Position numbers and translations under genes: made by a program
Shown: positions 6,341 to 61,816 of the stretch, piece by piece
Numbering within the stretch: the stretch's first letter is position 1
How the letters are laid out: each line of letters opens with the position of its first letter
The notes under the pieces: model-generated
What the model was told of the DNA's origin: nothing
The model's database searches: none
Seen by the model: only the letters and a program-made list of their open reading frames with translations
Source: a virus
Length of the DNA: 64,000 bases
Reading direction: 5' to 3' (one strand)
IMG/VR virus record: IMGVR_UViG_3300009514_000005
Span: 32,001-96,000 of that record

Positions 6341-6637
6341 TTATTTTAAGTCTTCTGTTTTAATATCTGACTTATATTTATTGTCACCGTAAAGACTTCT
6401 CGCCTCTTGAACATCAGGACTAATATCTTTATCCATAATGAATTTACGCAGTACGTCTGTAGTGACCTGAACCATGACATGCCCTTTCATAGCGCGGTTA
6501 ATGATCATTTGGTCTGGCTCTAGTTTTACCATTGACTCATCACGACTTAAGGCAAATAAAGCACCAGCAACCCCAACTGCAATACCAAAAATAAAACCTA
6601 TAACGGAAATCAATATCAAATAACTCTGAGAAATCAT
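6341..6637 (-). CDS. Small membrane-anchored protein
   Basis: N-terminal hydrophobic helix (ILISVIGFIFGIAVGVAGALFAL), overlaps the GT stop. Confidence 0.6.
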   Translation of the reverse strand: MISQSYLILISVIGFIFGIAVGVAGALFALSRDESMVKLEPDQMIINRAMKGHVMVQVTTDVLRKFIMDKDISPDVQEARSLYGDNKYKSDIKTEDLK

Positions 6638-8382
6638 GTCATCACCTCGCTGGCCGCTCTTACCACTTCGTCTGAAGTAATATCAGACAAGCATTGCATT
6701 GTCCCAATTTTGCATCCAACAAAAGTTACCGGAGGCTTTTCTTCGTGAAGGCAAAACCTGCATTCAACCTTCGGAACCAAAGCGATTGTCTTGGCCTGCC
6801 TATGGGAAACCCTATACTCTGGACTGGCAACAGTAAATAAACCAACAACAGGAATACTGGTGGTCATGGCCACATGAAAAAGACCCGAATCCATTCCAAT
6901 AAAAACGTTAGCTCTTTGCATTAATTCTCTAATTTCGTGTATGGAAAGATTGTTTACAAGATTCAATGTATTCTTAAATAGGTCGGCCACAAAATCTCCA
7001 CCCTTTCCAACAACAACAACTTTGTTCCCAGCACTAGCAAGTGACCTAGTTACGGCCATCCAGTTTTGTCTGGACCACGTTCTTGTTGGCCAAGACTGAG
7101 CCATATGAACAATAACTATCTTATCTTTGTTTAAATCAATGCCAGAAATTTTCCCTTTTAAAAGCTGATAATCATTTTCATCAGAGAACAATTCTGGAGC
7201 CGGATCAAAATCTAGACCACCAAATACAGCATTGGCATAAGCTTCTGCGATATGCATCTTTGGGCTTCTCTCGTAAACCTGATCCAAATCATAAATCACA
7301 TTAGATGGAATCTGATCTTTTCTAGAGACAACATTTGCAACATTAGGATTACCTTTAAAAATATTTTTAGACCCGGTAGACACCCAAATGTCTTTGTCTG
7401 GATGCCTTCTTTTTAATTCGCTAATAATTCCAGTAGTAAGCAAAACATCACCAAGGGCTCCGGTTCTTACCACTCCGATTATTTTTTTATCAAAATCATT
7501 TTCCTTAAAAGATTTCTTTCCAGATCCATCAAAAACCATTCTCTCTGATCCCTTTGGTTTAACGCTGACAGAATTAAGCAACTCAAGATTTGCCTCATTA
7601 ACGAAGCCATCAAGTTCTGTCATGTTTAAATTGGCAACTAGATTGCTAAATTTCTTAGCCGTGTTCATCTCCTTTATTAGCCAACTGCGACCTTTAACTA
7701 TTTTTGTCTGGACAGTGTTTCCCCTAGTGCCGCCTTCTTCATGTATAGCCTTAACGTCTGAAGAATAATAAACCCTCCATCCATTCCTCCACGCTCTAAT
7801 GCAATATTCCGTATCTTCACAGGAAAGAAAATAGTCCTCATTCAACATTCCGATATCATCAATCATTGATTTTCTAATCGCAAACAATGCCCCCGTCACC
7901 CCAATTAGATAAGACGGCTTAAGAATTACCGGAGAATATGCTGGAGGCTTATGCCATCCTCTATGAGTAAAGTTTGTGCTGACCCGCTCTATACCACCAT
8001 GCTGAACGCTTCCATCTGGATACAAAAGAAGACCACCTACAATGCCAATCTTTTGATGGACATTAAATGCCTCTTCCAAATACTGCACGACTGGCTGAAT
8101 GAATTTAATATCATTATTAACCAGCACAACGATGTCTCCTTTTGCTTGAGCAATCCCCTTGTTAACCGTCTTAGCAAACCCTGAATTGATAACATTGAAA
8201 TCAAAAACATAGCCTCTGGAATGACAAGCATTTCTAAGCTGACTTCTTATACTCTCGTCACTACCATCATCAACAACAATAACTTCATGATCTACGCCAT
8301 TGTGCTCTTCAAAAGTTCCAAGACAATGAGACATAGTCATATTCAAATGATTAACTGTTGGAACTATAAATGAAAATTTCAT
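6634..8382 (-). CDS. Bifunctional glycosyltransferase, GT2 N-terminus plus GT9 (heptosyltransferase-like) C-terminus
   Basis: FSFIVPTVN, VVDDGS, LVNNDI, SCEDTEYCIRA (GT2), VRTGALGDVLL and FIGMDSGLFHVA (GT9). Confidence 0.9.
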   Translation of the reverse strand: MKFSFIVPTVNHLNMTMSHCLGTFEEHNGVDHEVIVVDDGSDESIRSQLRNACHSRGYVFDFNVINSGFAKTVNKGIAQAKGDIVVLVNNDIKFIQPVVQYLEEAFNVHQKIGIVGGLLLYPDGSVQHGGIERVSTNFTHRGWHKPPAYSPVILKPSYLIGVTGALFAIRKSMIDDIGMLNEDYFLSCEDTEYCIRAWRNGWRVYYSSDVKAIHEEGGTRGNTVQTKIVKGRSWLIKEMNTAKKFSNLVANLNMTELDGFVNEANLELLNSVSVKPKGSERMVFDGSGKKSFKENDFDKKIIGVVRTGALGDVLLTTGIISELKRRHPDKDIWVSTGSKNIFKGNPNVANVVSRKDQIPSNVIYDLDQVYERSPKMHIAEAYANAVFGGLDFDPAPELFSDENDYQLLKGKISGIDLNKDKIVIVHMAQSWPTRTWSRQNWMAVTRSLASAGNKVVVVGKGGDFVADLFKNTLNLVNNLSIHEIRELMQRANVFIGMDSGLFHVAMTTSIPVVGLFTVASPEYRVSHRQAKTIALVPKVECRFCLHEEKPPVTFVGCKIGTMQCLSDITSDEVVRAASEVMT

Positions 8383-9596: not shown

Positions 9597-9598
9597 CT

Positions 9599-10657: not shown

Positions 10658-10659
10658 GC

Positions 10660-14488: not shown

Positions 14489-15376
14489 TTAATATTTACT
14501 CATTACGCAATGACCATGAGACATCTTATACTCTTTAAGCTCCTCATCAGTCATATAACCATATTTAGCAACCGCTTCATTAAGTTTTTCTGGCAAAAAT
14601 TTACGACCCCAAACTCCAAGGTTTTTATTTCCCTTATCCTCATTGGCTTTTAATTTGTTTTCTTCTATTCGAACCCAATCTTGATAGTCTTCCGGATGAA
14701 ACCTATAGAGCCAAAGTAATTCAATCTCGTTCATAAATGGACAAAGAATACAATTTGATGGAACCGGAACTTGGTTACCAGTTGAAGAAATATATTCCTG
14801 GCATCCTTTTCTGTCTAAACCAAGATCCACCAGTGGATAAATATGATTAATGGATTTTTTTCTCCACTTCATGGAATCCTTAGATGGATCTGCCATTCTT
14901 TTTTCTTCTCCAGAGGCAATACCAATCATCATTTTAATTTTTCCATACCGCTCTGCAAATCGAAGAAAGGCTTTCTTTCTTCCTTTGTCAACTCCATATT
15001 TCTTATGAAGCCAATCCTCTAAAAATTTATAGATAGGTTGAATCTTAAGTTTATCAGTGCAGGTTTTAGGGAAAGCTTTGGATCCAACAGTATTTTTAAG
15101 ATTATAAAAACCTCTCAACGACTGCCAAGAATCATAATGATATCCCATGTCACTGGTAAGGTGAACAAACTCAATTTTGTTTTTACCGCAAAATTTTTTA
15201 ATATTTTCAACATGACTATAAGTGTCCCGATGTTCATCACCAGTATCAGACATAATTACCAAAAAATCATTTGGAGCATATTTAGATCGGAACCCCTGAT
15301 CGTAAACATATTTGTAAAGGAGAGTAGTTGAATCCTGCCCTCCTCCAAATGATAAAATCGTTAACTGATCACTCAT
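14489..15376 (-). CDS. PAPS-reductase-like / PP-loop adenine nucleotide alpha-hydrolase family protein
   Basis: ILSFGGGQDST PP-loop, SDTGDEH, CTDKLKIQP, YPLVDLGLDRKGC, SNCILCPF. Confidence 0.75.
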   Translation of the reverse strand: MSDQLTILSFGGGQDSTTLLYKYVYDQGFRSKYAPNDFLVIMSDTGDEHRDTYSHVENIKKFCGKNKIEFVHLTSDMGYHYDSWQSLRGFYNLKNTVGSKAFPKTCTDKLKIQPIYKFLEDWLHKKYGVDKGRKKAFLRFAERYGKIKMMIGIASGEEKRMADPSKDSMKWRKKSINHIYPLVDLGLDRKGCQEYISSTGNQVPVPSNCILCPFMNEIELLWLYRFHPEDYQDWVRIEENKLKANEDKGNKNLGVWGRKFLPEKLNEAVAKYGYMTDEELKEYKMSHGHCVMSKY

Positions 15377-17092: not shown

Positions 17093-17122
17093 AAATAGAA
17101 AGGCTAATGGTATGATTTGGAT

Positions 17123-17314
17123 ATGAAGCTCTTTGTAAAAACCATCTCCTGGCGATTTATAGCTATGTCTACAACCGGCTTGATCTCTTACGTTCTCACG
17201 GGTTCAATTGAGATAGCGACTAGTATCATGAGCGTTGAAGTGGTGATAAAAAGTCTTTTATATTATGCTCACGAAAAGATATGGATTAAATACGGAGGAT
17301 CCCATGAAAAATAG
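17123..17314 (+). CDS. DUF2061-family small membrane protein
   Basis: KTISWRFIA...SYVLTG.I.IA.SI...EV..K..LYYAHEKIW signature. Confidence 0.85.
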   Translation: MKLFVKTISWRFIAMSTTGLISYVLTGSIEIATSIMSVEVVIKSLLYYAHEKIWIKYGGSHEK

Positions 17315-18227
17315 AGCAATCTGGCTTACCGGCCTCCCGTGTGCGGGGAAAACCACTATAGCTCAAGAACTTGTAAAACTCATCCCAAACTCCACCATTC
17401 TCGATGGAGACATAATTCGATCAGGGCCCCTAGGCCAAGGGGTAGGGTTTTCCAAAGAAGACAGAGAAGCCCATATTAAGCGAATGGGGCATATAGCAAA
17501 AATTCTCTTAGACTCTGGGATAACCCCAATCTGTTCCTTCGTTTCTCCGTCAAGAGAAACCAGGGAAGAGATTAAAGAGTTCATAGGTAAAGATCGGTTC
17601 TTTGAGATTTTCATAGATCCTCCCTTGGAGGTATGCATCAAAAGAGACGTTAAGGGAATGTATGCTAAAGCCATGCGTGGCGAGATCCAAAATTTTACTG
17701 GAATCGATGCAACTTACGAAAAGCCAACTAACCCAAGCCTAAGAATTGATACCGATAAAATCTCCCTAAAAGACACGGTTAATTTTATTGTAGGCAAACT
17801 TAAAATTTATCCAGAAAGAGCTGCCTTTTTTATTGGCCGATGGAACGGTGCCTTACATTTGGGGCATGAGGAAATTTTCAATCAAGAATTAAGCAAAGGC
17901 AAAAGGATTGTTCTTCTCATTAGAAACGTTAGGCCAGACGAAAAAAATCCTTGGACCGCTAAAGAAGTCAAGGAAATGCTGGACTATAGATACAAAGATA
18001 ATGACAGTGTAAGCACTATGATTGTTCCAGATCTTGAGAGTGTTAACTACGGTAGAGGCGTTGGATATGAAGTAAAAGAGATAAAGGTTTCAGGAAAGAT
18101 AGCCGGGATCAGTGGAACAAAATGCAGAGAAATGATTCAAGACAATAACCCTGAATGGAAAAAACTAGTATCTCATAATGTTATTGAATTTTTAGAGCTG
18201 AAATATAGCAAAGAAAATAAAAAATAA
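17304..18227 (+). CDS. cysC: Adenylyl-sulfate (APS) kinase fused to a HIGH-type nucleotidyltransferase domain
   Basis: IWLTGLPCAGKTT, LDGD, GFSKEDR, SFVSP, KRDVKGMYAKA...NFTGID. C-terminal FIGRWNGALHLGH...NPWT...ISGTKCR. Start refined to 17304 (GGAGG SD). Confidence 0.9.
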   Translation: MKNRAIWLTGLPCAGKTTIAQELVKLIPNSTILDGDIIRSGPLGQGVGFSKEDREAHIKRMGHIAKILLDSGITPICSFVSPSRETREEIKEFIGKDRFFEIFIDPPLEVCIKRDVKGMYAKAMRGEIQNFTGIDATYEKPTNPSLRIDTDKISLKDTVNFIVGKLKIYPERAAFFIGRWNGALHLGHEEIFNQELSKGKRIVLLIRNVRPDEKNPWTAKEVKEMLDYRYKDNDSVSTMIVPDLESVNYGRGVGYEVKEIKVSGKIAGISGTKCREMIQDNNPEWKKLVSHNVIEFLELKYSKENKK

Positions 18228-18905: not shown

Positions 18906-19428
18906 ACTTCTGAGCACAAAGATAAAATCCATATTTAAACGGAAGGTTTATATCGGATCCATGATCAACCACAACCATACTGTTTCCGTAATAAGCCCTG
19001 AATCTTCTTAAAAATATTTCATGATAATAAGCATGGTAATGCTCAGCGTTCCATAAATTATCATATGCTGAATCATCTGGAAGATAGAGAAAAAGCTTTC
19101 CCCCTGGTTTTATAAAATGAATCCAATCATCCAAGGCTCTAAAGTCATTTGGAACATGCTCAAGACAATGAGACGAGAAGAGACAGTCGTATTGGGCAAC
19201 ATGATCAGGAAGCAATTCGGATAGCCTATAAATATCCTCTATCTGTGGAGGGTTGAAATCTACCCCAGGAAGTTTTCTGCCATCAATCCCAAAAGCTTCA
19301 GGCTTTATTTTGTCAGGACCACAACCAATCTCGATAACTTTCCCGCCACAGTACTGCATAGCGATATGTCTTATCTTTGCCGTCTCGCTTACAAAATCTC
19401 CTTCGCAACATCCCAAACTTTTACCCAT
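18898..19428 (-). CDS. Class I SAM-dependent methyltransferase
   Basis: VIEIGCG, FGID, CLFSSHCLEHV, IKPGGKLFLYLP. Confidence 0.85.
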   Translation of the reverse strand: MGKSLGCCEGDFVSETAKIRHIAMQYCGGKVIEIGCGPDKIKPEAFGIDGRKLPGVDFNPPQIEDIYRLSELLPDHVAQYDCLFSSHCLEHVPNDFRALDDWIHFIKPGGKLFLYLPDDSAYDNLWNAEHYHAYYHEIFLRRFRAYYGNSMVVVDHGSDINLPFKYGFYLCAQKSI

Positions 19429-20048
19429 TAGATCACCTCGTCAACGATTCCTAATTTTTTAGCATCAAGAGCTGTCATATAACTTTCTTTGTTTTCCATC
19501 AACTCTTCAAGTTTTGTTTTGGCAACTTTTTTCCCAAGGCGTTTTTTTTCAACATCACCTATCTCAACGGTTTTCTTATGCCGGATCTCTCTATAAAGAA
19601 TATCGATGATCCTTTTCTTTTCAAGTTTGAGGGAAGCCAGGATCCCGGCGGCCTCGGTCTCATTAGTGCCCATAAGAAGACTGGACTCCCTTGGGCCATG
19701 GAACATAAAGATTGAATCCTTGCTACTTTTTCTCCAATCACCACAAGCAGCAATGGTAGTGGCGGCACTCATACAGTCACCTAAAACATAAGTAATCACA
19801 GTGCCTTCAAATAATTTAAGAGAATTAATAATCGAAATCGCCGAAGCGCAGCAGCCACCATAAGAATTTATGAAAACCGTGACTTCATTTATTCTTTCTT
19901 TTTCTGCTACGTTGTTCCAATAGAAAACTTTACCCTGAACATCCTCAGCCATCTCTTCATTGATTTCACCGAAAATTTTTATGGCACCATTATCTAACTC
20001 AGATTCTAGGACAAAATCTGTTTCCTGAGCCATAAGCCCTCCAATCAA
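19428..20048 (-). CDS. ClpP-like serine protease
   Basis: IFGEI, FINSYGG, CMSAAT (Ser), FMFHGP (His), YMTALDAKKLGIVDEVI. Confidence 0.85.
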   Translation of the reverse strand: MIGGLMAQETDFVLESELDNGAIKIFGEINEEMAEDVQGKVFYWNNVAEKERINEVTVFINSYGGCCASAISIINSLKLFEGTVITYVLGDCMSAATTIAACGDWRKSSKDSIFMFHGPRESSLLMGTNETEAAGILASLKLEKKRIIDILYREIRHKKTVEIGDVEKKRLGKKVAKTKLEELMENKESYMTALDAKKLGIVDEVI

Positions 20049-20494: not shown

Positions 20495-21654
20495 TTTCTC
20501 TCGTATTTTTTCCCGTAAATATAAGCAAAGTCACCAGGTACCATAATATGATCTGGAGTTGCTACCTTTTTTTCTGTATCAATATGAACAACTAAAAAAC
20601 TGTTTGTCCACTTATCTCGACCTTCCACATATTCAGCCCTGGTTTCAGCTATACATCCAACAGTTTGCCACCAAATTTTACCCATCGGAATGTTTGAAGT
20701 TGTGATGAGTTCTGGCCTATGGGTATGACCACTTGCTCCAGAAATACCCATGCTTAAATCTTTGAAGTGAGATACGAGAAAGGTATCATAATAAACCTTA
20801 TAGTTCTCTTTTATCTCTTCATTTATATCTCCGTTTTGAAAAGCAGCTAAATCTAATTTGCAAACTAAATTAATTTCAAATTCATCCAACCCAAAAACAT
20901 CTGATAGAGATAGCCCCATAACATCAGAAAGTATAATTCTTATGTTTGGAGTTTTGTCAGCCAAAAGCTTTAAAAGCCTAAAGCAATGATTCCCAGCTAT
21001 GAGATCAATTTGAGAATCAGGGCAAGCTCTTCTAAGTTCTCCGAAAATATTTTTTTTAACAAAATTAAATCTTCCAACAATATCGTAAGAACGTGGATCA
21101 ATGCTGAACCTAGACGCCTCGTACAAATCATATACGTCACCAGCCATGCAAATAACATCAGGCTGAAGCCTCCTTGCTGTATCTACAAAACAAGAAAGAA
21201 CAAAGCGATCTGCATGTTTGTCATGAAAATCTGAGCCAACAAGAATTGTTTTAAATCTCTTTTTATCTCTATTCTTTTTTACAAATTTTTCATGATATGG
21301 AAGAACCTCTACTTCATAAAAATTTCTGTAGACATCAAGAGAAGCATGTTTTGCTATTTTCCTTTCCAGTGAATGTTGATTGCGAGAAAGCTCTAATCCA
21401 GCCTGCCTTCTAAACTCTAAAAAAGTTCCAAAGAATTGAGACCAAGTAGCATCCGAATAATTTCCATGAATTCTATAAAAATTTCTTGTAATGTGTTTTA
21501 ACGGAAAGGCTTCCTGAACTTTTCTTAAATCATCGATGCAGTCTTCTTCGGTAGCCTTAGAGTTGAATTTCTTTTTTCTCTCAGATAAAAGAGCAAGCTC
21601 AGATTGGTTTTGGCGTTTTTTCTTGGGAGCTTTTTTCGCTTTACCCTTTGCCAT
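20491..21654 (-). CDS. Calcineurin-like metallophosphoesterase with N-terminal helical domain
   Basis: SDFH, AGDVYD, AGNH, SGHTH motifs. Confidence 0.8.
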   Translation of the reverse strand: MAKGKAKKAPKKKRQNQSELALLSERKKKFNSKATEEDCIDDLRKVQEAFPLKHITRNFYRIHGNYSDATWSQFFGTFLEFRRQAGLELSRNQHSLERKIAKHASLDVYRNFYEVEVLPYHEKFVKKNRDKKRFKTILVGSDFHDKHADRFVLSCFVDTARRLQPDVICMAGDVYDLYEASRFSIDPRSYDIVGRFNFVKKNIFGELRRACPDSQIDLIAGNHCFRLLKLLADKTPNIRIILSDVMGLSLSDVFGLDEFEINLVCKLDLAAFQNGDINEEIKENYKVYYDTFLVSHFKDLSMGISGASGHTHRPELITTSNIPMGKIWWQTVGCIAETRAEYVEGRDKWTNSFLVVHIDTEKKVATPDHIMVPGDFAYIYGKKYERK

Positions 21655-21764
21655 CTACCCTCCGCTAGTTTCGATATGTCAACGAGAACTAACTATAGTG
21701 TAGAGGGTAAACGGAATTTTGTGCAAACTTTTAACTACTTATGACGCATGTGTTACTATTGACC

Positions 21765-21935
21765 ATGGATAATAAACCTGAGAAAAAAGAGGATAAATTT
21801 TGTCCAGAATGCAGTTGTTACCTAAGATGCCATCCAGAATGGCCTCACAAGTATTTAAAGTGCGGAGTGTGTGGATTTACAAGAATGAAAAATTCATTTA
21901 AGAAAAAACCCAGTATTTCCCAGCAATCTTCTTAG
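21765..21935 (+). CDS. Small zinc-ribbon protein (counter-oriented)
   Basis: CPEC...CGVC, preceded by TTAACT-N17-TACTAT with TG extension. Confidence 0.5.
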   Translation: MDNKPEKKEDKFCPECSCYLRCHPEWPHKYLKCGVCGFTRMKNSFKKKPSISQQSS

Positions 21936-22116
21936 ATTCATCAAAAAGCTCTATATCGAAATAATCAACGTAGTCCTTCCAGTTTACTCCGTATAGCTTA
22001 TAGATCTCTCTCACTTTTAAAACAATGGATTTCTTTGTGATCTTTTCATGTGCTCGTAAAAGCTTCACAATGGCAAAAATAATAACCTTGTCAGTTAACT
22101 TAAAATCAATCCTCAT
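21898..22116 (-). CDS. Hypothetical protein
   Basis: 72-aa ORF coupled to the upstream gene. Confidence 0.45.
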   Translation of the reverse strand: MRIDFKLTDKVIIFAIVKLLRAHEKITKKSIVLKVREIYKLYGVNWKDYVDYFDIELFDESKKIAGKYWVFS

Positions 22117-22897
22117 TTTTTACCACCCTCACTTTATCGCTTACAAGAGGAGCCCCATCAGGTCCTTTCTCATGATCCTTCACCCAAGTATATCCCTCAA
22201 CACAATACTGGTCTTCACGATCTTTCCCAAGCCCATTATGCTTTCTCCAGTGACCTCTTACTAGCCATCTATGACTCCAATCAATTGGAAAGGCACGTTT
22301 AGGAGTATAATTAGGTCGATTCTTTTTTGGAGTTACATGAATTATTTTCCTTATTTTAATCATCTCCCTGTCTTTACCTGATCCGATTCTTATTTTTTCA
22401 TTAACTTTCTGCTCACCTTTTGACTCTTGCTTGAATCTGTTTAGGAAATTATCTAATATAAAATCATTAGCGACCCCATCAGCATGAGCATCCACCGGAA
22501 AAGAAAGAATATGCGATGTTTTATCTGTCTGAATAAGATTGTAAAAATGAAATTTACCAGGTTTTTTCTCAACACAAACAATACAAGCAGTATAAACCTT
22601 AAGAGGATCATCATCTTTTGGAACCGATACCCATCCATTTAAATATTCATAAGAGCAAACCTTAAAAGGTGCCCACAGTTTTGCATCAATATTTTGTTCA
22701 GCATCTAAAGGATTTTGAGGATCAGAAAGACTATACACAAATGGCTTAACTTTTTTGATGTATCTAGAAAATTCCCCAACCTCTTCCTTGGTAGCCTCCC
22801 TGAGCTGCTTTGCCTCAGGATTACAATGAATGCACTGGAAAACCATAAAGTTTTTAGGGTTTCTGGCAACCTCAATCATTTTTTTCAACTGAATCAA
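22106..22897 (-). CDS. Hypothetical phage protein (VRGHWR motif)
   Basis: C-terminal WLVRGHWRK...WVKDHEKG motif recurrent in phage hypotheticals. Confidence 0.65.
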   Translation of the reverse strand: MIQLKKMIEVARNPKNFMVFQCIHCNPEAKQLREATKEEVGEFSRYIKKVKPFVYSLSDPQNPLDAEQNIDAKLWAPFKVCSYEYLNGWVSVPKDDDPLKVYTACIVCVEKKPGKFHFYNLIQTDKTSHILSFPVDAHADGVANDFILDNFLNRFKQESKGEQKVNEKIRIGSGKDREMIKIRKIIHVTPKKNRPNYTPKRAFPIDWSHRWLVRGHWRKHNGLGKDREDQYCVEGYTWVKDHEKGPDGAPLVSDKVRVVKNED

Positions 22898-22909
22898 TTT
22901 ATTCTCCTT

Positions 22910-23287
22910 TTATTCCTGGTTCAACGCTCTCCATAAAACATCCAAAAATTCTCCATTTGTTTTTGTTGGGTCTATTGAATTTATTTCATCCAAAAAATCC
23001 AAGACAACTTTTTTAATTTCTCCGGGAATATTTTCATTCTTTTTGAATTTAAAATGACTATTATTAAATTTAATTTCAAGAATCTTTAAATCCTTAATTT
23101 GTAAAACAATTTCAAAATCATTTTTATATTCAAGATGAAAACTTGGATTTCCAAAAGGTTCTTTATAGACACGAAAAATATATCCATCTTTATTCCCAAC
23201 TTTTGCCATTTCTTGTAAAAGATTTTTTCCGGGAATGCCAAACCCATCAGTTTTTTCAGTCATTACCTCTTTTTTATTCTTATCCAT
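22910..23287 (-). CDS. Hypothetical protein
   Basis: 125-aa ORF with GGAG SD. Confidence 0.55.
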   Translation of the reverse strand: MDKNKKEVMTEKTDGFGIPGKNLLQEMAKVGNKDGYIFRVYKEPFGNPSFHLEYKNDFEIVLQIKDLKILEIKFNNSHFKFKKNENIPGEIKKVVLDFLDEINSIDPTKTNGEFLDVLWRALNQE

Positions 23288-23296
23288 GTCTATCTC

Positions 23297-23479
23297 CTAC
23301 CTTTCATCTTTTGTACAAATTTGGATAAACTGCCTAACTAATTCCGAGAAAGAAGTGAACCCAAGCTTTTCTTTCATATTCTTTAGTTTCTCATATTCAG
23401 ATTTAGTTACTCTGATCTGGACCTGTTTGCTTAGCTTCTCGCTAGGCTTCCATTGAGAATCTTTCCTTACCTTATCCAT
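23297..23479 (-). CDS. Ribbon-helix-helix (CopG/Arc-like) regulator
   Basis: QVQIRVTKSEYEKLK...FSELVRQFI. Confidence 0.7.
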   Translation of the reverse strand: MDKVRKDSQWKPSEKLSKQVQIRVTKSEYEKLKNMKEKLGFTSFSELVRQFIQICTKDER

Positions 23480-23625
23480 AGCTCTCTCCTTTTCCCCGGA
23501 GGCATATACTTAAGAACCGACATGGCTTTTTGCTCTAGTTCTTCCTCTGTAGTATTCGGAGAACACCAAACAAAAAGAGTGTATAGCCTTTCTCTAAACA
23601 TCACTGTTACGTTCTTTCCAAACAT
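23467..23625 (-). CDS. Small hypothetical protein (52 aa, below the ORF track cutoff)
   Basis: AAGGAGG SD, MFGKNVTVMFRERLYTLFVWCSPNTTEEELEQKAMSVLKYMPPGKRRELWIR, fills the gap between genes. Confidence 0.55.
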   Translation of the reverse strand: MFGKNVTVMFRERLYTLFVWCSPNTTEEELEQKAMSVLKYMPPGKRRELWIR

Positions 23626-23634
23626 GAATCCTCC

Positions 23635-24423
23635 TTATTTAATTTCAGTCATGGTTTCTCCCATTTTTATCGAAACGGGACTTTTTTCGAATTCCACCGG
23701 ATCAGCGACAAGTTTTTTATCAACATAATAAAACTTTAATTTTCCAACGAGTTTATTCATATTGATTTCCGCTGTCATATAAACAACTGGCTTATCTTTT
23801 GAAAAGTCCCCGATTAAATACGGGCCATGATTAGCGTTTCCGGTATTACATATCAAAATATGCAGAAGAATCTTGTCGAGAAACACTCTCGCGGAAAACA
23901 ACTTAGATTCTTTAGGGCAAGTTATTAATGATTTGTGAGGAAATACTTTTGTCGCTTTTACAGTCTTCCCGTTTTTTAACTCCTGAACCTCCATGGGATA
24001 TCCAACATGATTATAAAACTTCCACTTACCCTCTTGCTTGTTCTCTAAATAATTTCCTTCAGATGTTTTCTCCATGGTTTTTGGATCCCAAAAAACAGTG
24101 TGCCCATGATGAATGACATTATTCACCACTTTGTTTTGATACATAATCCTCGAAGCTAAGCTAAAATTACCCATGGCCGACATTTTTTCCGCTATTGCCT
24201 TGGCTCTCTTGTCGACAGATGTGGTAGCTTTCACACATCCTGCCATAAAACTATTTATTCTTTTGGCGTAAGCAAAAGTTTTCTTTAGCGGTGGCGGACA
24301 TTTATCTTGAGCCAACCATTCTTTGCCGCCCACCAAAGATCTAAGAGTATTTTCTCCGGCACTGAACTGAGCATCTGAACTCATCGAAGCTAATAAAATT
24401 ATTGCAAACATTAAAATTTTCAT
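23635..24423 (-). CDS. Exported protein with MORN-variant (YwqK-like) repeat
   Basis: Signal peptide MKILMFAIILLASMSSDA, SEGNYLENKQEGKWKFYN...ELKNGK. Confidence 0.6.
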   Translation of the reverse strand: MKILMFAIILLASMSSDAQFSAGENTLRSLVGGKEWLAQDKCPPPLKKTFAYAKRINSFMAGCVKATTSVDKRAKAIAEKMSAMGNFSLASRIMYQNKVVNNVIHHGHTVFWDPKTMEKTSEGNYLENKQEGKWKFYNHVGYPMEVQELKNGKTVKATKVFPHKSLITCPKESKLFSARVFLDKILLHILICNTGNANHGPYLIGDFSKDKPVVYMTAEINMNKLVGKLKFYYVDKKLVADPVEFEKSPVSIKMGETMTEIK

Positions 24424-27248: not shown

Positions 27249-27636
27249 TTTTATTCCCTCCGTTCAATACGCTTCGTAATGGGGGTTGCTGATTCCCTGG
27301 CATTTGAAGCCCCATGCGTTCTGCCCTTATTTTTGTAAGTAATGTTTCATAAGATGCTATCTGTTTTTTATCAAAATCATTTTCAGGATCTAAAAACCCA
27401 TGAGTTAAAAAATCATCAAAATTAAACTTACAGCTATTTGATCCAATAAATAAATGATCAGGATATAAATAAAACTGATGATTCCCTGGAGCCATCGGAA
27501 CCTCAATTCCTCTGATAACATTCCTTAGAGTTACCATTGTTTTTCCTTCGTCTTCTTCAACATATTTCCCGAAGACATAGGCCGTAACGCCTGGCGAAGG
27601 ATCCTTTAAAGCACCAACCCATATTTTATCTTTCAT
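27241..27636 (-). CDS. Hypothetical protein
   Basis: 131-aa ORF coupled to rmlB. Confidence 0.55.
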   Translation of the reverse strand: MKDKIWVGALKDPSPGVTAYVFGKYVEEDEGKTMVTLRNVIRGIEVPMAPGNHQFYLYPDHLFIGSNSCKFNFDDFLTHGFLDPENDFDKKQIASYETLLTKIRAERMGLQMPGNQQPPLRSVLNGGNKNE

Positions 27637-28621
27637 TTAATTTCTCCTTATACCAATCAACAGTTTTAATTAGATCATTCATAAAGGTTTTCTCTTCCAT
27701 ATAATTTTGGAGCCCAAAATCATCCGTTGTGTTTCTTCCTAGAGCATAACGAACATCATGACCAGGTCTATCCGCTATGGACTTAATTAGCTCTTGAGGT
27801 TTGCCTAATAAACCAAGGATTAATCGAGCCATAACAATATTTGGAATCTCCTGGGTTCCGGTAATATGAAGGACTTCTCCCGGAGGAAAGAAGGTTGCTA
27901 TGGAAACATCTCTCGTAAATTTACAAACATGATCGATATGGACCCATTCCCTACTTTGATATCCGTCACCATAAATAGGGATGCTCTCATCTTGAAGGGC
28001 CTTCCTGATAACGGTAGGAATAAATTTTTCATCATGCTGATAAGGGCCAAAAATATTTACACATCGAGTCGTAACAACCGGAAGAGAAAAGGTCTTAATA
28101 TAGGCTTGGGCCAAGCATTCCTGGGCTGCTTTTGTTGCCGAATAAACGGACCCACAATTAAAAACGGATCGTTCATAAGCCTTACCCTCGGAAAGACAAG
28201 CGACAACCTCATCAGTGCCGAATAAAAGAATCTGCTCTAATTCCTTGATCTCTCTAGCCACCTCAAAAAGTTCAAGGGTTCCTCTTACGTTATCGTCGAC
28301 GAATTGCCTTGGGCCCATAATAGAGCGATCAACATGAGACTGAGCAGCCAAGTGAATAATTCGATTAAATCCCTGTTCTTTGCAAAATTTTTTCAAATCT
28401 CTTCCGAAAGTTCCAAGACGATACGTAACCGTTTTTTCTCCTTCATTATAAAGAAACGTAAAATCATTTATTTTGCTTGTATCGAAGGTATTGATCTCGT
28501 CAATGCCTGGCCTTAAGTTATCCATATCGAGGCCGATAACTTCAAAACCATCAAATGATCTCAAGAAAGGAATTAGATTTCTTCCAACAAATCCATCAGA
28601 ACCAGTAACTAAAATTTTCAT
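27626..28621 (-). CDS. rmlB: dTDP-glucose 4,6-dehydratase
   Basis: LVTGSDGFVG, HLAAQSHVDRSI, TDEV, YSATKAA, TRCVNIFGPYQHDEKFIP, DRPGHDVRYAL. Confidence 0.9.
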   Translation of the reverse strand: MKILVTGSDGFVGRNLIPFLRSFDGFEVIGLDMDNLRPGIDEINTFDTSKINDFTFLYNEGEKTVTYRLGTFGRDLKKFCKEQGFNRIIHLAAQSHVDRSIMGPRQFVDDNVRGTLELFEVAREIKELEQILLFGTDEVVACLSEGKAYERSVFNCGSVYSATKAAQECLAQAYIKTFSLPVVTTRCVNIFGPYQHDEKFIPTVIRKALQDESIPIYGDGYQSREWVHIDHVCKFTRDVSIATFFPPGEVLHITGTQEIPNIVMARLILGLLGKPQELIKSIADRPGHDVRYALGRNTTDDFGLQNYMEEKTFMNDLIKTVDWYKEKLNER

Positions 28622-29283: not shown

Positions 29284-30087
29284 TTAAAAAATACTTTTTA
29301 CAGCACTGAGAAGATTTGGGCTCTTTGGCGGCTGAGTTCCAACCCTATTAACATTGTCCTGTAGGTTATATCTATCTTTCCAGTGTTGTTCAATACTTGT
29401 CCTATCAACATAACCCCAATTACTTCCAATTTGAATGCTTTCAGCAAAAGACAAGCTAACCGTAACAATCCTAGGTTGGCCACCTCTGAAAAAAGATTCA
29501 TAAGTTACGTCACACTGAAGCATTAAACAACTCACGGAATCAAGGAAAGACCCGAAGACCCCGCTTGTAACTCCGCTATTGGGTAAATACAAAATCAATT
29601 GAGGAGGAGGTTTTGCTAATCTATTTTTATAAGTTGGATAAGTTTTTGATCTAAGCCAAGCTACAGCAGCGGCTACGTCTACATTGAACCTATTTCCTGT
29701 TCCGGCCTTTATTGTATTCAAGGTAGATGTTCTGTTATCTCTAAACCTATCAATTGTTGCCGTACGATTTGTGCGATCATTTTGAGCAACAGCGCTGAAT
29801 GTAATATCTTCAGGAGGCTGTTCGTCAGAAGTGAAAGTGGCCGAAAAGCTAATCACTCTCGCATTACCATGAAGCCATTGATAAAGAGGATGAGATCCAC
29901 CAATGGCATTTTTGGTAATATATTCAACGCCTCTTGAGTCGTCGATTGTTTCTGGGTAATACTGAAAAGCCCTGGCGGTATCATAAAGAATATTGCCATC
30001 GCTATCCAGCTCAACAAGAGATGCCAGAGCAACCTTTCGATCTTCCCTTGTGCTTAGCACCTTTGAGACTGAACTTATAATAGACAT
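29284..30087 (-). CDS. Contractile-injection-system tube/baseplate protein (CIS tube-like, P2 gpU-like)
   Basis: FQYYPETIDDSR.VEY......GGSHPLYQW..G..R.ISFSATF...CDVTYESFF..G.PRIVTVSLSFAE. Confidence 0.7.
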   Translation of the reverse strand: MSIISSVSKVLSTREDRKVALASLVELDSDGNILYDTARAFQYYPETIDDSRGVEYITKNAIGGSHPLYQWLHGNARVISFSATFTSDEQPPEDITFSAVAQNDRTNRTATIDRFRDNRTSTLNTIKAGTGNRFNVDVAAAVAWLRSKTYPTYKNRLAKPPPQLILYLPNSGVTSGVFGSFLDSVSCLMLQCDVTYESFFRGGQPRIVTVSLSFAESIQIGSNWGYVDRTSIEQHWKDRYNLQDNVNRVGTQPPKSPNLLSAVKSIF

Positions 30088-30118
30088 CTATTCGATTCCT
30101 TACGAAAAATAACTATCT

Positions 30119-30433
30119 CTATCTTACTATTTTTGGCTTAGTTTTTCTCTTCTTCTTTGCAGCTTTTTTCTTTGGCCGTTTCTTGGTGGCCTTTTCCCAA
30201 TTACCATCAATTTCCTGACCGTCAGTCACAGTGGATGCCTGATCTTCCACCCGACCCTTTTCGGTCATTTCCTGCGTTCTTTTATTGACCTGCTTTTTAA
30301 GCCACCGGAACAAAAAGAATGCCCCAATACTAAAAAGACCACCCACGATCCAAGAAATTGGACCACTGTTAAAAAATTTTAAAACTGATTCGATTAATCC
30401 TACTGGCTCCATGACCAACTCCCTTTTTTCCAT
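30119..30433 (-). CDS. Single-pass membrane protein with basic C-terminus
   Basis: TM segment ISWIVGGLFSIGAFFLF, Lys-rich tail. Confidence 0.55.
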   Translation of the reverse strand: MEKRELVMEPVGLIESVLKFFNSGPISWIVGGLFSIGAFFLFRWLKKQVNKRTQEMTEKGRVEDQASTVTDGQEIDGNWEKATKKRPKKKAAKKKRKTKPKIVR

Positions 30434-31320
30434 TCACCTATTACAGATCTTCCCTTCACAGTGAGAAGCCTTAATACATGGGGATCTTTCTTTTTGAATT
30501 TGAACTTCGCCTTGGTTTTAAACTTATGCTTGTCGTCCAAAACAATTACTGAAGTTGACGGATCCCCTTCTACTTCAATCTTACCATTTTTATGACGCAC
30601 TATGGGGATTGGAAGTGGGGCAAATCCAGAATCATACACAGCCACCAAAACATTCAAGTAAACATCAGGGAACTGCCCCTGGGAAATATACCCGTCAAGA
30701 ACACAAATCCTGGGCCCCGTTTTTGCCAAAGCCTCATTGAGTTTAATCTCCGCAATCCCACCTGTTAAAGTGAGGTTTTTTCTATAGGCTATCCCGCATC
30801 CATTCAGCTCCACGCTGACTTGACCGACCCCGCCCACATCAACCCTAAGGTACGAATCCAAGCTCCCTGTGAGCTTTCTAGTGTCTCCCAACCAAGTCTC
30901 ACCATCTGTCATCCTAATAGCCAAATATCCCCTAAAGGAATGAATCTGGATCCCGGAGTTTTCTTCATTGGGAAGCTCCGGAGAAACCGTCATAGAAATC
31001 AAACAATCCCGATCAATTTTTCCAGGAATAATAATTGGAATTTCTTCTGACCCATCGTACCGAAAAGAGTAATCAATTGAGCATCGGCCTGAATAAACCT
31101 TGATCGATCCCTTGTAATAGGAAGCGATTTTAATACCCAAGTTTTGATATTTTTTTCCCTTTTCGAGAGAGCAAACTCCAAGACCATTCCACCTCTTTCC
31201 ACAGGCGATGATTTCTGCTGAAGGATAAATAGACTGAATCGCAGGAAGAGCGGGATCCGGCCTAACTTTACCGGCACAACCAACAAGAACAAAGATAAGA
31301 GAAAAAATTAAATACTTCAT
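30400..31320 (-). CDS. Lipoprotein
   Basis: Lipobox MKYLIFSLIFVLVG-C, AGGAGG SD. Confidence 0.7.
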   Translation of the reverse strand: MKYLIFSLIFVLVGCAGKVRPDPALPAIQSIYPSAEIIACGKRWNGLGVCSLEKGKKYQNLGIKIASYYKGSIKVYSGRCSIDYSFRYDGSEEIPIIIPGKIDRDCLISMTVSPELPNEENSGIQIHSFRGYLAIRMTDGETWLGDTRKLTGSLDSYLRVDVGGVGQVSVELNGCGIAYRKNLTLTGGIAEIKLNEALAKTGPRICVLDGYISQGQFPDVYLNVLVAVYDSGFAPLPIPIVRHKNGKIEVEGDPSTSVIVLDDKHKFKTKAKFKFKKKDPHVLRLLTVKGRSVIGEWKKGSWSWSQ

Positions 31321-58238: not shown

Positions 58239-58269
58239 TCCGTCTTGTAAGATATGAGTATATATTACT

Positions 58270-59474: not shown

Positions 59475-59664
59475 TCAACAATCTCCCATCTTTATAACGA
59501 CTAGAAAATTCACGCATCAACTTTACTAATGTTTCACGAACATATAAATTATTGCTTTTAACCGTACCTATAAAATCCCTAGCAACATCTTCTTCTAGGA
59601 AAAATTTAAAAGGTCTCTTTTTAACATCCATGTTTTCTTCTACAAAAAAATCAATCTTGTCCAT
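59455..59664 (-). CDS. Small RHH-like protein
   Basis: RPFKFFLEEDVARDF...VRETLVKLMREF, start refined to ATG 59664. Confidence 0.4.
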   Translation of the reverse strand: MDKIDFFVEENMDVKKRPFKFFLEEDVARDFIGTVKSNNLYVRETLVKLMREFSSRYKDGRLLNEPERT

Positions 59665-60391
59665 CTCTCGCTCCTTGAGAAGCAACGAAGTCAATCCAAC
59701 TATTCTTTTCTCCTAAATCTGCCCATTCACCCTTTATTTGAACTACCCTTAATCTATCTTTCTTTAAATACATTTTTAAAACATCTGTTATTTCAAGTTC
59801 TCCACGCTCCGAAGGAGATAACTCTTCCACCCTTGCAAAAACATCCCCAGGAAAATAATAAAGACCAGTTAGTATTCTATCATGCTGCGGACTACTGGGC
59901 TTCTCTATGATCTCCACAGGACCATCATCATCATAGATTACCTGCCCAAAGGATTTAGCCTTTTCTTTATCCCCAAGAGCATATTCGAAAGCGTAAGCGT
60001 AATGAGGATGAGGACAATCCAAATCAATCGCTAATTGTTTTTCTGAAAAATAATTATCCCCAAGTATCAAAAGAACTCCAATCGGAGCCCTGTCGTTTAT
60101 TGAAACTCTTTTGAAAATATCAGCAATACCTTTTGGTTCTGGCTGGAATGCATAGCTCACCTTGTCAAACCCATACTTGTCACCATCCTGGATATAATCA
60201 ACCACCTGGCTCGCATGATTAGACCCAGTTACAATAGTCACGTTCTTGATATCATGCCTTCTTAAAAACTCGAGAGGATGATCCACCATGAGGCCATCAC
60301 CAGTAGGAATGAGATGTTTGTTTAAAAATTTGGTTACCGGAGCCATTCTTGAACCAGATCCACCACAAGCAACTATGGTCAACATAATCAT
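59651..60391 (-). CDS. rmlA: Glucose-1-phosphate thymidylyltransferase (short form)
   Basis: GGSGSRMAPVT...KHLIP, QPEPKGIA, LGDN, EKP, SERGELEITDV, WADLG. Confidence 0.9.
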   Translation of the reverse strand: MIMLTIVACGGSGSRMAPVTKFLNKHLIPTGDGLMVDHPLEFLRRHDIKNVTIVTGSNHASQVVDYIQDGDKYGFDKVSYAFQPEPKGIADIFKRVSINDRAPIGVLLILGDNYFSEKQLAIDLDCPHPHYAYAFEYALGDKEKAKSFGQVIYDDDGPVEIIEKPSSPQHDRILTGLYYFPGDVFARVEELSPSERGELEITDVLKMYLKKDRLRVVQIKGEWADLGEKNSWIDFVASQGARDGQD

Positions 60392-60933
60392 TCTCCTTGA
60401 TATTCAAATGGCGACTCAAAATCCTTGAGCTTCGGAAGGTTTAGATCTTTCATGGAAACACCGATCCTATCTAGATCACCCCATGGCAATCCAAGACTGG
60501 CGTCAGAAGGATCAATGCCTCCATCGGATTCTTTGTCCCACTCCTCGGTACACATATAAAGAAACCTTGTACTGTCTTTTTTAGACCAAAAACCATGAGC
60601 AAATCCAGGAGGAATGTAAACAGATATTCCATCCGGCTTTAACTCGAACGTATCGACTTGGCCGTAAGTAGGGGATCCCTTTCTGAGATCCATGGCAACA
60701 TCTGTAACGTAACCAGACAAAACCCTGATTAATTTTCCTTGGGGATTATGTTTTTGAAAATGAAGACCACGCACCATATCTTTTTCGGATACAGACATAT
60801 TCACTTGCTTAAAGCTGGGAAGAAAATCCATGTCAGACCTCTTATATAGCTCAGTAAAAGATCCACGAATATCCTCAAAAATATAGTTTTTCATTAAATA
60901 ACAACCACTCTTGGTCTTACTGAGATACCCCAT
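60388..60933 (-). CDS. rmlC: dTDP-4-dehydrorhamnose 3,5-epimerase
   Basis: DIRGSFTE, VRGLHFQ, QGKLIRV, DLRKGSPTYG, IPPGFAHGF, start refined to 60933. Confidence 0.95.
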   Translation of the reverse strand: MGYLSKTKSGCYLMKNYIFEDIRGSFTELYKRSDMDFLPSFKQVNMSVSEKDMVRGLHFQKHNPQGKLIRVLSGYVTDVAMDLRKGSPTYGQVDTFELKPDGISVYIPPGFAHGFWSKKDSTRFLYMCTEEWDKESDGGIDPSDASLGLPWGDLDRIGVSMKDLNLPKLKDFESPFEYQGE

Positions 60934-61816
60934 TATACAGCTCCATATTAAATTTATTTCTAATGTAAAACTTAACATCGTCTTGCCAACTGCCCATGCT
61001 TCCCAGCTTTAACAATTCTTTTATTTTTAATGGACTCATAGAAGTGTTTTTCGGACGACGAGCTTTGCCGAACTTAAGATCGTCAACCCCATGGACCAAC
61101 CATTGATACTCATAAGAGATTCCGTTTACAATGAAATCTGCAACTTCACATCTCGTTGCGAAATCATCGTGTGTTAAGTGATAAGTCCCGTTTGGAATAA
61201 AACTAAGCCCCTTAGCCATCATCCTACAAACCATCTCAATAATTACGAAGGCCAGCCAATCAGTCGAACAAGGGGATCCTGTTTGAGAATGAGTCACTTC
61301 GATAACCTTTTTATCGATGACTGATTGTGTTACCCAGTCTATAAAATTAAATCTAGTTTTTCCAAATAACCACTGAACCCTTAGAATGATCGAAGGAGTT
61401 CCGAGTAATCCCATCTCGCCATTTAATTTAGATTTTCCGTATTCCTGAATAGGACTAGGTTTATCCTCTTCGATATAAGGATCTTCTTTTTCACCATCAA
61501 AAACATAATCAGTACTAATATGGATTAATTTGGCCCCATATGCTTTACAAGTTTGGCCTAAAAATCTAACGCCATCTCCATTGATTAAATTAGCTACTTC
61601 GCTTTGACTCTCACACTTGTCTACGTCAGTGAATGCCGCAGCATTTATGACAATAGATGGCTTAACTTTTTCAAAGAATTTTCTAACACCAATGTTATTC
61701 GTAAGGTCTAAAGACTTATGAGTAGTAAGGATATGGCTTACCTGTCTGATTGAAAGCTGAGCCCTAAGGCTAGAACCCAACATTCCTTCGGCACCCAAAA
61801 CAACGATCATCGTCAA
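60917..61816 (-). CDS. rmlD: dTDP-4-dehydrorhamnose reductase
   Basis: GAEGMLG, NAAAFTDVDKCE, HISTDYVFDG, YGKSKLNGE, RRPKNTSM. Confidence 0.95.
   Translation of the reverse strand: MTMIVVLGAEGMLGSSLRAQLSIRQVSHILTTHKSLDLTNNIGVRKFFEKVKPSIVINAAAFTDVDKCESQSEVANLINGDGVRFLGQTCKAYGAKLIHISTDYVFDGEKEDPYIEEDKPSPIQEYGKSKLNGEMGLLGTPSIILRVQWLFGKTRFNFIDWVTQSVIDKKVIEVTHSQTGSPCSTDWLAFVIIEMVCRMMAKGLSFIPNGTYHLTHDDFATRCEVADFIVNGISYEYQWLVHGVDDLKFGKARRPKNTSMSPLKIKELLKLGSMGSWQDDVKFYIRNKFNMELYNGVSQ

Follow-up and report, generated by a model that had tools for sequence, protein, structure and literature searches.

A predicted pathway for glycan decoration, with sugar-donor, glycosyltransferase and sulfation genes, in a T4-like bacteriophage and its relatives

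We have analyzed a 64-kb window (bases 32001-96000) of the 134,619-bp IMG/VR virus record IMGVR_UViG_3300009514_000005, a phage genome that is estimated to be 90% complete and is labelled G000 here. At four separate loci the window encodes four enzymes of the Rml type (RmlA, B, C and D, for synthesis of deoxythymidine diphosphate (dTDP)-L-rhamnose), three glycosyltransferase (GT) domains, an adenosine 5'-phosphosulfate (APS) kinase, a sulfotransferase and an S-adenosylmethionine (SAM) methyltransferase. All ten domains had been listed in an original prediction made from this sequence, and each was found in an intact open reading frame (ORF), as shown in Table 1. Our reading is that they form one phage-encoded glycan-decoration pathway acting in the cytoplasm of the infected cell, for which we estimate a probability of about 0.55, a little better than even. 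That all of the pathway genes serve one product is probable. The direct support consists of the identities of the genes, their conservation, their neighbourhoods and their fusions; the chemistry, the order of the steps and the acceptor are what we infer from these.

G000 thus holds virus-encoded GTs together with genes for donor synthesis and tailoring, and the system appears to be a variant of virus-encoded autonomous glycosylation, that is, a real, conserved and modular phage glycan decoration as far as sequence comparison can tell. The pathway would begin with the RmlA-like, RmlB-like, RmlC and RmlD enzymes, which would turn glucose-1-phosphate into dTDP-L-rhamnose or a closely related 6-deoxyhexose. 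A short glycan would then be built on the acceptor by two enzymes, the GT2-GT9 fusion, which is soluble, and the GT4-like protein, at least one of them using the phage-made donor. As a lineage-specific addition, the APS kinase fusion would make 3'-phosphoadenosine 5'-phosphosulfate (PAPS), the APS coming possibly from the attached HxGH domain and otherwise from the host. The 215-aa sulfotransferase would sulfate the glycan, and the small SAM methyltransferase would O-methylate it. We infer that the sugar is rhamnose and that sulfate and methyl groups are placed on the same glycan.

Table 1. Predicted pathway genes, followed by other features of the window that are discussed in the text
Feature	Position	Strand	Matches and remarks
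GT2-GT9 fusion, 582 aa	6634-8382	-	PF00535 4.8e-13 (residues 4-217); PF01075 3.7e-18 (residues ~300-582)
GT4/GT1-like GT-B protein, 405 aa	8379-9596	-	phrog_7162 'glycosyltransferase' 4.1e-32; no Pfam match
DUF2061 small membrane protein	17117-17314	+	PF09834 4.4e-19; first gene of the plus-strand island
APS kinase (residues ~15-180) with 140-aa HxGH/ISGT nucleotidyltransferase-like domain	17265-18227	+	TIGR00455 181.5 bits
Minimal PAPS-type sulfotransferase, 215 aa	18258-18905	+	PF13469 3e-9; PF00685 1e-7
Class I SAM methyltransferase, 176 aa	18898-19428	-	PF13489 2.8e-9; convergent with the sulfotransferase gene
RmlB-like nucleoside diphosphate (NDP)-hexose 4,6-dehydratase	27626-28621	-	TIGR01181 231.7 bits, best family by far
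RmlA-like sugar-1-phosphate nucleotidylyltransferase, short form, 246 aa	59651-60391	-	PF00483 6.3e-36; TIGR01207 129 bits
RmlC, dTDP-4-dehydrorhamnose 3,5-epimerase	60388-60978	-	PF00908 4.8e-48; TIGR01221 147.8 bits; phrog_8784
RmlD, dTDP-4-dehydrorhamnose reductase	60917-61816	-	PF04321 3.3e-69; TIGR01214 215.6 bits
Probable single-stranded DNA-binding protein, 244 aa	5524-6258	-	No Pfam match
PAPS reductase-like protein	14489-15376	-	phrog_424
ClpP-family protease	19428-20048	-	
Holin	31686-32159	-	PF05105 1.7e-24
Baseplate protein, 656 aa	43881-45851	-	
Tail protein, 231 aa	57272-57967		

Conservation of the gene set

Relatives were collected from IMG/VR by a search with the tail sheath protein, which gave two close genomes, and by an alignment-based search with the GT2-GT9 fusion, which gave more; whole records were then compared by tblastn. 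The resulting clade comprises five genomes, with a sixth record (G002) as an additional 23-kb fragment (Table 2). The GT2-GT9 fusion is 44-48% identical across all five clade genomes, close to the conservation of the capsid protein (51-70%). Together with the GT4-like gene it lies between a gene resembling that of a single-stranded DNA-binding protein (SSB) and the primase gene in G000, G001, G008 and G009; in G007 the two occupy the same replication module, but other genes of an operon separate them. Synteny of the RmlB-like gene extends to G001, G008 and G009, and in both G001 and G002 the rmlA, C and D genes are found at the corresponding place, flanked by neck and head genes.

Table 2. Distribution of the predicted pathway genes among the clade genomes and the G002 fragment
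Genome	State	G+C	GT2-GT9 and GT4-like	RmlB-like	RmlA, C and D	Methyltransferase	APS kinase fusion and DUF2061
G000	90% complete	40%	yes	yes	yes	yes	yes
G001	complete	49%	yes	yes	yes	yes	no
G007	complete	40%	yes	yes	yes	yes	yes
G008	complete	55%	yes	yes	no	no	no
G009	fragment	34%	yes	yes	not seen within fragment	not seen within fragment	not seen within fragment
G002	23-kb fragment		not covered	not covered	yes	not covered	not covered

The original prediction had proposed a co-occurrence search among relatives, and had named recent, unexpressed capture from a host as an outcome that would speak against it. The search found the GTs and the RmlB-like enzyme in every clade genome, and genes for sulfation, methylation and glycosyl transfer adjacent or fused in other phage contigs. 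Since the rml, GT2-GT9 and GT4-like genes are conserved, mostly at the same positions, in relatives ranging from 34 to 55% G+C, they appear to be old residents of the lineage and not recent stray captures. The set as a whole seems modular, with no obligatory composition, and the sulfation genes look lineage-specific.

Physical linkage and gene fusions

What appears to be the strongest evidence of linkage comes from G007, where genes that are scattered over ~55 kb in G000 are contiguous. A plus-strand operon in this genome encodes, in order, the GT4-like protein, an unassigned 190-aa protein, RmlC, RmlD, a PfkB sugar kinase, a small cupin, a 206-aa protein, DUF2061, the APS kinase-HxGH fusion and the GT2-GT9 fusion. 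The APS kinase-HxGH protein is 55% identical to the G000 copy. The 206-aa protein starts with LITGIPRSGTS, and its ESM Atlas model matches sulfotransferases with template-modelling (TM) scores of 0.63-0.70. The PfkB and cupin genes (L127:6863-8186; the cupin is similar to lyxose/mannose-6-phosphate isomerases) stand between RmlD and the sulfation genes, and the PfkB, cupin and HxGH proteins together look like components of a pathway that would supply the GT9 domain with an ADP-heptose-type donor.

Other phage contigs show parts of the same association. A 641-aa GT2-GT9 gene in G004 (36% G+C) lies directly upstream of the sulfotransferase gene, its end meeting the sulfotransferase start. In G005 (51% G+C) a capsid protein gene is followed, in this order, by genes for GT9, the sulfotransferase, a methyltransferase homologous to that of G000 and a 565-aa GT2-GT9 fusion. 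The sugar operon of G006 (31% G+C) opens with GT1-type transferases, a deacetylase-methyltransferase, a sulfotransferase and a methyltransferase-HxGH fusion; it also encodes an APS kinase-sulfotransferase fusion, an FkbM methyltransferase, a short-chain dehydrogenase/reductase of the 4,6-dehydratase type, a GT-D protein and a DegT aminotransferase. Homologues of the methyltransferase adjoin GT9 or GT2-GT9 genes in five viral contigs (L131, L135, L137, L149 and L199), and in L226 a DUF2061 gene directly upstream of the APS kinase fusion, a methyltransferase and both types of sulfotransferase fall within 8 kb. These neighbourhoods and fusions link the sulfotransferase with the APS kinase, the HxGH domain, DUF2061, the methyltransferase and the GT2-GT9 fusion, and the G007 operon adds RmlC and RmlD to this set. 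In G006 a 106-aa protein homologous to the product of G000 1267-1620 stands between the methyltransferase-HxGH and APS kinase-sulfotransferase genes (L101:10644-13136); this small protein of 106/117 aa may also belong to the sulfation genes.

Linkage of this kind bears on the possibility that these are unrelated auxiliary metabolic genes, with rml topping up the dTDP-rhamnose of the host, cysC boosting its sulfur assimilation and the others acting on separate targets. The four loci of G000 are up to 53 kb apart, the modules are gained and lost independently (G001 is without sulfation genes and G008 without rmlA, C and D), and a published listing of viral auxiliary genes includes a sulfotransferase (PMC8290583). 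Moreover, rmlC and rmlA are common by themselves in deposited phages, for example in >100 Escherichia phage records, Phapecoctavirus among them. Unrelated functions would not, however, account readily for the single operon of G007, for the recurring adjacency of sulfotransferase, GT2-GT9 and methyltransferase genes in unrelated phages, or for the APS kinase-sulfotransferase and methyltransferase-HxGH fusions, and we regard this explanation as improbable.

Glycosyltransferases

The AlphaFold (AF2) model of the GT2-GT9 protein (predicted local distance difference test score 89.4) has a GT2 domain of the GT-A fold at the N-terminus and a GT9 domain of the GT-B fold at the C-terminus, both well folded and joined by a linker of ~30 residues that is disordered at 273-296. 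In structural comparisons the GT2 half gave VIA Z-scores of 20-23 to polypeptide N-acetylgalactosaminyltransferases (ppGalNAc-Ts) and to Listeria RmlT (20.5 for RmlT), and its N-terminus weakly matches the PHROG for GtrB-like O-antigen conversion. The GT9 half scored 26.9 to 3TOV, 24.7 to WaaF and 22.8 to TibC (292 residues), and comparison of folds did not separate a TibC-like from a WaaF-like GT9 domain. Homologue alignments show four near-invariant cysteines in the GT9 half (C541, C544, C557 and C564). By sequence register, which is the sole basis of the correspondence, this Cys4 group lies ~24 residues past the strand aligned to TibC residue 319, and the cysteines of TibC are at 339, 342, 358 and 370. 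About 35 homologous GT2-GT9 fusion clusters were found, on contigs of up to ~157 kb; in our searches the family was seen only on viral or phage-sized metagenome contigs.

The GT4-like gene overlaps its neighbours at both ends: at its start it overlaps the stop of the primase region upstream, and at its stop the start of the GT2-GT9 gene. The ESM Atlas structure of its product matches viral GT1/GT4 clusters with TM-scores of 0.73-0.78, and its language-model feature score is 0.96. Near the N-terminus, at residues 43-67, a CxxC...CxxC arrangement (CDGC ... CVGC) resembles a zinc ribbon inserted in the first Rossmann lobe. The G007 copy of the gene (L127:2403-4922, 839 aa) is interrupted by a LAGLIDADG intein (PF14528, 3.6e-17, with an Intein_splicing match below the cutoff). 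A glycosyltransferase gene is an unusual host for an intein, which suggests that the gene matters to the phage.

On its other side the GT2-GT9 gene adjoins the gene for a 244-aa protein with an acidic D(D/E)IPF tail like that of bacterial SSB, present in five of five clade genomes. This protein had been a candidate for a base-modifying enzyme; the candidate was rejected and the protein read as a replication protein because its DDIPF end resembles that of SSB proteins, and it is probably the SSB of the phage.

Nucleotide-sugar genes

All four Rml enzyme families are present in G000 by their best NCBIfam and Pfam matches. Judged by eye against the family motifs, the proteins keep GGSGSR and EKP (RmlA), GSDGFVG, TDE and YSATK (RmlB), RGLH (RmlC) and GAEGMLG and YGKSK (RmlD). 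The real start of rmlC is probably an internal ATG at ~60933 or 60894. The rmlD gene is packed 26 nt after a head-module gene, and the junctions of rmlD, C and A, which stand between head and neck genes, are 26 nt or overlapping. 'RmlABCD' is the best family assignment, the specificity of the enzymes being a prediction; dTDP-6-deoxy-L-talose, or a sugar carried on another nucleotide, is also possible as their product.

Sulfation genes and methyltransferase

The genes for DUF2061, the APS kinase fusion and the sulfotransferase form the only multi-gene island on the plus strand of the window. The APS kinase, whose true start is probably the ATG at 17304, exceeds the TIGR00455 cutoff of 138.7 bits, and Foldseek aligns it to solved APS kinases with 42-46% identity and a root-mean-square deviation of 1.2-1.5 A (E 1e-15). 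Its identity is solid.

In the sulfotransferase, the PAPS-binding motifs GxARSGTS (5'-phosphosulfate-binding, 5'-PSB) and R119...S127 (3'-phosphate-binding, 3'-PB) are invariant in 18 homologues, and the profile of the family matches solved sulfotransferases with a best E value of 2.7e-6. The protein has no match in 50,697 deposited phage records and no PHROG. Its homologues comprise ~24 metagenomic clusters and three full-length IMG/VR loci; the latter came from an alignment-based search, a search of IMG/VR with the single sequence having found nothing.

The 140-aa HxGH domain is the obvious candidate for the maker of APS. An APS kinase domain (PF01583) is present in 55 of the 59 clusters of its homologues, and in two (P0110 and P0119) the fusion partner is DUF2061. 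Its best named resemblance, to nicotinamide mononucleotide adenylyltransferase, is weak, and the G006 copy has a sub-threshold match of 13 bits to PF01747, the canonical ATP sulfurylase. The order of domains in the fusion, with the kinase N-terminal, is the same as in animal PAPS synthases. Because the PfkB kinase sits near the HxGH fusion in G007, the data also allow an alternative, in which the two would form an HldE-like ADP-sugar route feeding the GT9 domain. As for the DUF2061 protein, it gave no match in a scan of genome contigs. A DUF2061 gene is found within the Mesorhizobium nod locus with nodH, nodP and nodQ (bioRxiv 10.1101/2022.04.26.489235), which, by analogy, fits a role in sulfate handling.

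The window also holds a PAPS reductase-like protein of phrog_424, and a paralogue is encoded at G000 29639-30529 (minus strand). Of these two, G001 has the second only and G008 has both. They were dropped as members of the pathway: phrog_424 is widespread in phages, the two proteins have no relative in the PDB, one paralogue occurs in G001, which is without sulfation genes, and no evidence links these proteins to the sulfation island 2 kb away.

Cellular site and acceptor

No transmembrane segment was found in any pathway enzyme. The priming phosphoglycosyltransferase (PF02397) is absent from four genomes in a search whose positive control worked, and no polytopic membrane protein of flippase or polymerase size was detected; the maximum was 3-5 hydrophobic segments, in ORFs of <190 aa, with the exception of one 654-aa ORF in G001 that has three segments. 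Because all of these are lacking, the chemistry appears to be cytoplasmic, and the phage by itself would not be able to export a polymer.

We tentatively favour virion proteins as the acceptor over a host wall polymer and over DNA, at somewhat less than even odds. The packing of rmlD, C and A inside the morphogenesis operon is an indirect hint in this direction, and the G005 cluster, which abuts a capsid gene, is another. The Cys4 group of the GT9 domain would, in sequence register, fall at the position of the iron finger of TibC, and there are precedents, by analogy, in mycobacteriophages, chlorovirus A064R/A061L and giant viruses. The tripeptide VSG may be considered as a glycosylation sequon, which is a weak lead. 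In the structural block no other tripeptide is as strongly over-represented (33 occurrences where 7.7 are expected, 4.3-fold); VSG is enriched 3.2-fold genome-wide and 2.0-4.1-fold across the clade, lowest in G008, the genome without RmlA, C and D. The 656-aa baseplate protein has eight copies of VSG, some of them within an 8-residue repeat VSGxxxLG; the fibre has seven copies, the 231-aa tail protein four and the sheath three. In its fullest form, the proposal would be that fibres, baseplate and sheath are coated with a sulfated, O-methylated rhamnose glycan by phage enzymes only, including a TibC-like GT2-GT9 protein with a Cys4 finger and a new minimal PAPS synthase, in which the HxGH domain stands in for ATP sulfurylase beside the APS kinase and works with DUF2061; taken together, this is unlikely.

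The same enzymes could instead modify a glycopolymer of the host envelope (wall teichoic acid, rhamnose polysaccharide or the core of lipopolysaccharide, LPS) at the cytoplasmic face, with export of the product by host machinery; an altered receptor would block superinfection or keep progeny off debris. GT9 is the family of LPS heptosyltransferases, and 3TOV and WaaF are its top structural matches here. RmlT is a TDP-rhamnose wall-teichoic-acid rhamnosyltransferase, the weak resemblance to GtrB also fits O-antigen conversion, and the GT genes are in the early/middle replication module. The PF05105 holin and the nearest capsids of isolates, which are those of Bacillus, Listeria and Streptococcus phages, are a hint that the host is Gram-positive and has a rhamnose-rich wall, and rhizobia are known for sulfated surface glycans made through NodH/NodPQ-type genes, next to which DUF2061 is found. 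In a Gram-positive host, however, the GT9 domain would have no LPS substrate. The phages encode no membrane-associated GT, priming transferase, flippase or ligase, and the packing of rmlD, C and A together with structural genes of the late class points to a stage that is late for the remodelling of a cell near lysis. Furthermore, because the phages that carry the core span 34-55% G+C, their hosts are presumably very different, whereas receptor-modifying genes are usually host-specific and variable. We consider modification of the envelope doubtful, less probable than that of virion proteins.

A third possible acceptor is the phage DNA, which the transferases would hypermodify with a rhamnose glycan, possibly sulfated or methylated, as a protection against restriction, as in T4 and phages with glycosylated 5-hydroxymethylcytosine (5hmC) or 5-hydroxycytosine (5hoC). 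The place of the two GT genes between SSB and primase genes, in five genomes, would suit such a target. Phage enzymes of both the GT-A and GT-B folds are known to act on DNA, and one route adds heptose to 5hmC by way of a cytidylyltransferase (bioRxiv 10.1101/2023.12.21.572611); the PfkB kinase and HxGH domain of G007 recall the two halves of the ADP-heptose enzyme HldE. All described routes, however, need either a thymidylate-synthase homologue or a C5-methylase with a TET-type oxygenase (bioRxiv 10.1101/2023.12.21.572611; PMC13326640). PF00303 and PF00145 are absent from G000, at its 90% completeness, and from the complete genome of G001, in searches whose controls worked; Tet_JBP (PF12851) was not found in a search run without a positive control. 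The rml genes, moreover, are in a structural operon. DNA is thus a very unlikely acceptor.

Observations that weigh against the proposed pathway

Several findings weigh against one pathway that makes a sulfated rhamnose glycan, or against virion proteins as its acceptor. All four Rml scores fall below the NCBIfam equivalog cutoffs: RmlC (147.8 of 155.75 bits) and RmlD (215.6 of 224.05) are near misses, ~8 bits short, RmlB (231.7 of 365.1) is short by a third, and RmlA (129 of 360.65) is very far short, its TIGR01207 score being tied with those of archaeal GlmU N-domains. Because of these scores, that of RmlA above all, the nucleotide and the sugar appear uncertain. The complete genome of G008 retains the GTs without RmlA, C and D, and that of G001, the nearest relative with a complete genome, is without APS kinase and sulfotransferase, all else being kept; because of this gene content, neither autonomy in rhamnose nor sulfation seems essential to the GT core. 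The canonical ATP sulfurylase (PF01747) is absent from G000 and from the complete genome of G007, in a search whose positive control worked, so that any autonomy in PAPS would rest on the candidate HxGH domain. As to the acceptor, the GTs are encoded within the replication module, flanked by the SSB-like gene and primase, a position that suits a DNA target, and by Z-score the GT9 half is nearer to 3TOV and WaaF than to TibC. The VSG excess of 3.2-4.3-fold is only modestly above the 1.8-fold seen in structural loci of unrelated myoviruses, some of which reach 4-fold.

The pathway had been described at the outset as single and self-contained. The first of these claims has gained from the conservation in the clade, the G007 operon and the fusions, and has lost from G001, which is without sulfation, and G008, which is without RmlA, C and D. 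The second stands for the APS kinase; it does not extend to a canonical ATP sulfurylase, a priming transferase or a membrane protein of flippase or polymerase size, none of which was found.

Relation to known systems

Full-text literature searches found no paper on a bacteriophage glycan pathway with sulfation. The claim that no described system combines all of these elements therefore holds for bacteriophages within the literature searched, but not for viruses at large, as giant viruses have predicted clusters of this kind (PMC10117803). In the Megavirinae (Moumouvirus australiensis ma457-ma468 and Cotonvirus japonicus; PMC10117803, PMC9614988) there are likewise nucleotide-sugar genes (4,6-dehydratases and reductases), several GTs, an enzyme containing APS kinase and a sulfotransferase. 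Sulfated virion glycans are predicted from these clusters, the sulfation being unvalidated, and tupanviruses also carry sugar methyltransferases (PMC10117803, PMC9614988). These are, however, giant viruses of amoebae with a canonical sulfate adenylyltransferase (SAT)/APS kinase of 624-655 aa, whereas the genome studied here is that of a 135-kb tailed bacteriophage with an APS kinase joined to a 140-aa HxGH domain, dTDP-rhamnose as predicted donor, a GT2-GT9 fusion and dispersed genes.

The best functional analogue of the GT2-GT9 and methyltransferase pair is A064R and A061L of chlorovirus PBCV-1 (PMC9614988), where an L-rhamnose transferase with two GT domains and SAM methyltransferases that O-methylate the terminal capsid rhamnose are found. 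The likeness drawn here is one of function, and PBCV-1 differs in being a eukaryotic virus with a UDP-L-rhamnose donor, N-linked capsid glycans and no sulfation. In mycobacteriophages Che8 and Corndog, as described by Freeman et al. 2023 (cited in PMC12619734), phage GTs, some with an O-methyltransferase, glycosylate capsid and tail-tube subunits; here too the likeness drawn is one of function. These phages infect actinobacteria, their GT genes directly follow the structural genes, and no donor or sulfation genes are reported for them.

Rhizobial NodPQ/NodH likewise pairs a dedicated supply of PAPS with a small glycan sulfotransferase, and DUF2061 is found in the Mesorhizobium nod locus. It differs in being bacterial, in its canonical ATP sulfurylase of the CysD/CysN type and in its lipo-chitooligosaccharide acceptor. 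The bacterial autotransporter heptosyltransferases (TibC/AAH; PMC4358343), which form a dodecameric ring, share a GT9 fold with the phage protein; a four-cysteine finger is inserted in their C-lobe, and the phage cysteines would, by sequence register, stand at the corresponding place. The iron finger of TibC, which was called unique, helps to bind a beta-helical protein substrate (PMC4358343). The spacing in the phage is CxxC-x12-C-x6-C against CxxC-x15-C-x11-C in TibC, and TibC has a beta-barrel domain at its N-terminus where the phage protein has its GT2 GT-A domain.

Glycans on phage particles are documented mainly in mycobacteriophages, in which they affect recognition by antibodies, and to our knowledge no phage component has ever been shown to bear a sulfated glycan. 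If the virions of this clade are decorated, a strongly anionic, methylated coat could change adsorption, binding to mucus or matrix, immune recognition and sensitivity to host defences clade-wide; should the wall polymer of the host be the target, or DNA, the pathway would represent a novel form of receptor editing or of DNA modification. In either case the analysis supplies candidate enzymes: the GT2-GT9 fusion family, a minimal sulfotransferase family and the APS kinase-HxGH fusion, which may be an unrecognised kind of ATP sulfurylase.

The phage and other features of the window

By its gene content the phage appears to be a T4-like myovirus. The window encodes a sheath, two gp19-like tube proteins, gp25/gpV-like and T4-type baseplate proteins, a fibre protein of 2319 aa, and a replication module with helicases, primase, DnaB, UvrD and RusA. 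Its G+C content is ~40%, nearly all transcription is on the minus strand, and no tRNA genes were found in the 64 kb. Because megablast of 22 kb of the phage against 50,697 deposited phage records gave no match, no annotated close relative at the DNA level seems to exist among deposited phages. The best capsid matches, at 30-37% identity, are to an uncultured 595-kb phage, Bacillus phages SP-15 and HSE3, Listeria phage LIS04 and cyanophages. The holin belongs to PF05105, a family which we take to come mostly from phages of Gram-positive bacteria.

Searches for regulatory signals gave little. The T4 late-promoter motif TATAAATA occurs at 7 sites against 4.5 expected, none of them ahead of the sugar genes; a k-mer search of 79 upstream regions gave the ribosome-binding site as its sole signal, and a scan for sigma-70 promoters and terminators in the plus-strand island was at chance level. 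The ClpP-family protease gene that adjoins the methyltransferase gene has no tblastn homologue in G001, G007, G008 or G009. Finally, the DnaB gene of G009 (21649-23868) and the homologue of a 471-aa helicase in G008 (91894-94278) each match in two pieces with a gap of ~0.9-1 kb, and are possibly split by inteins or introns.

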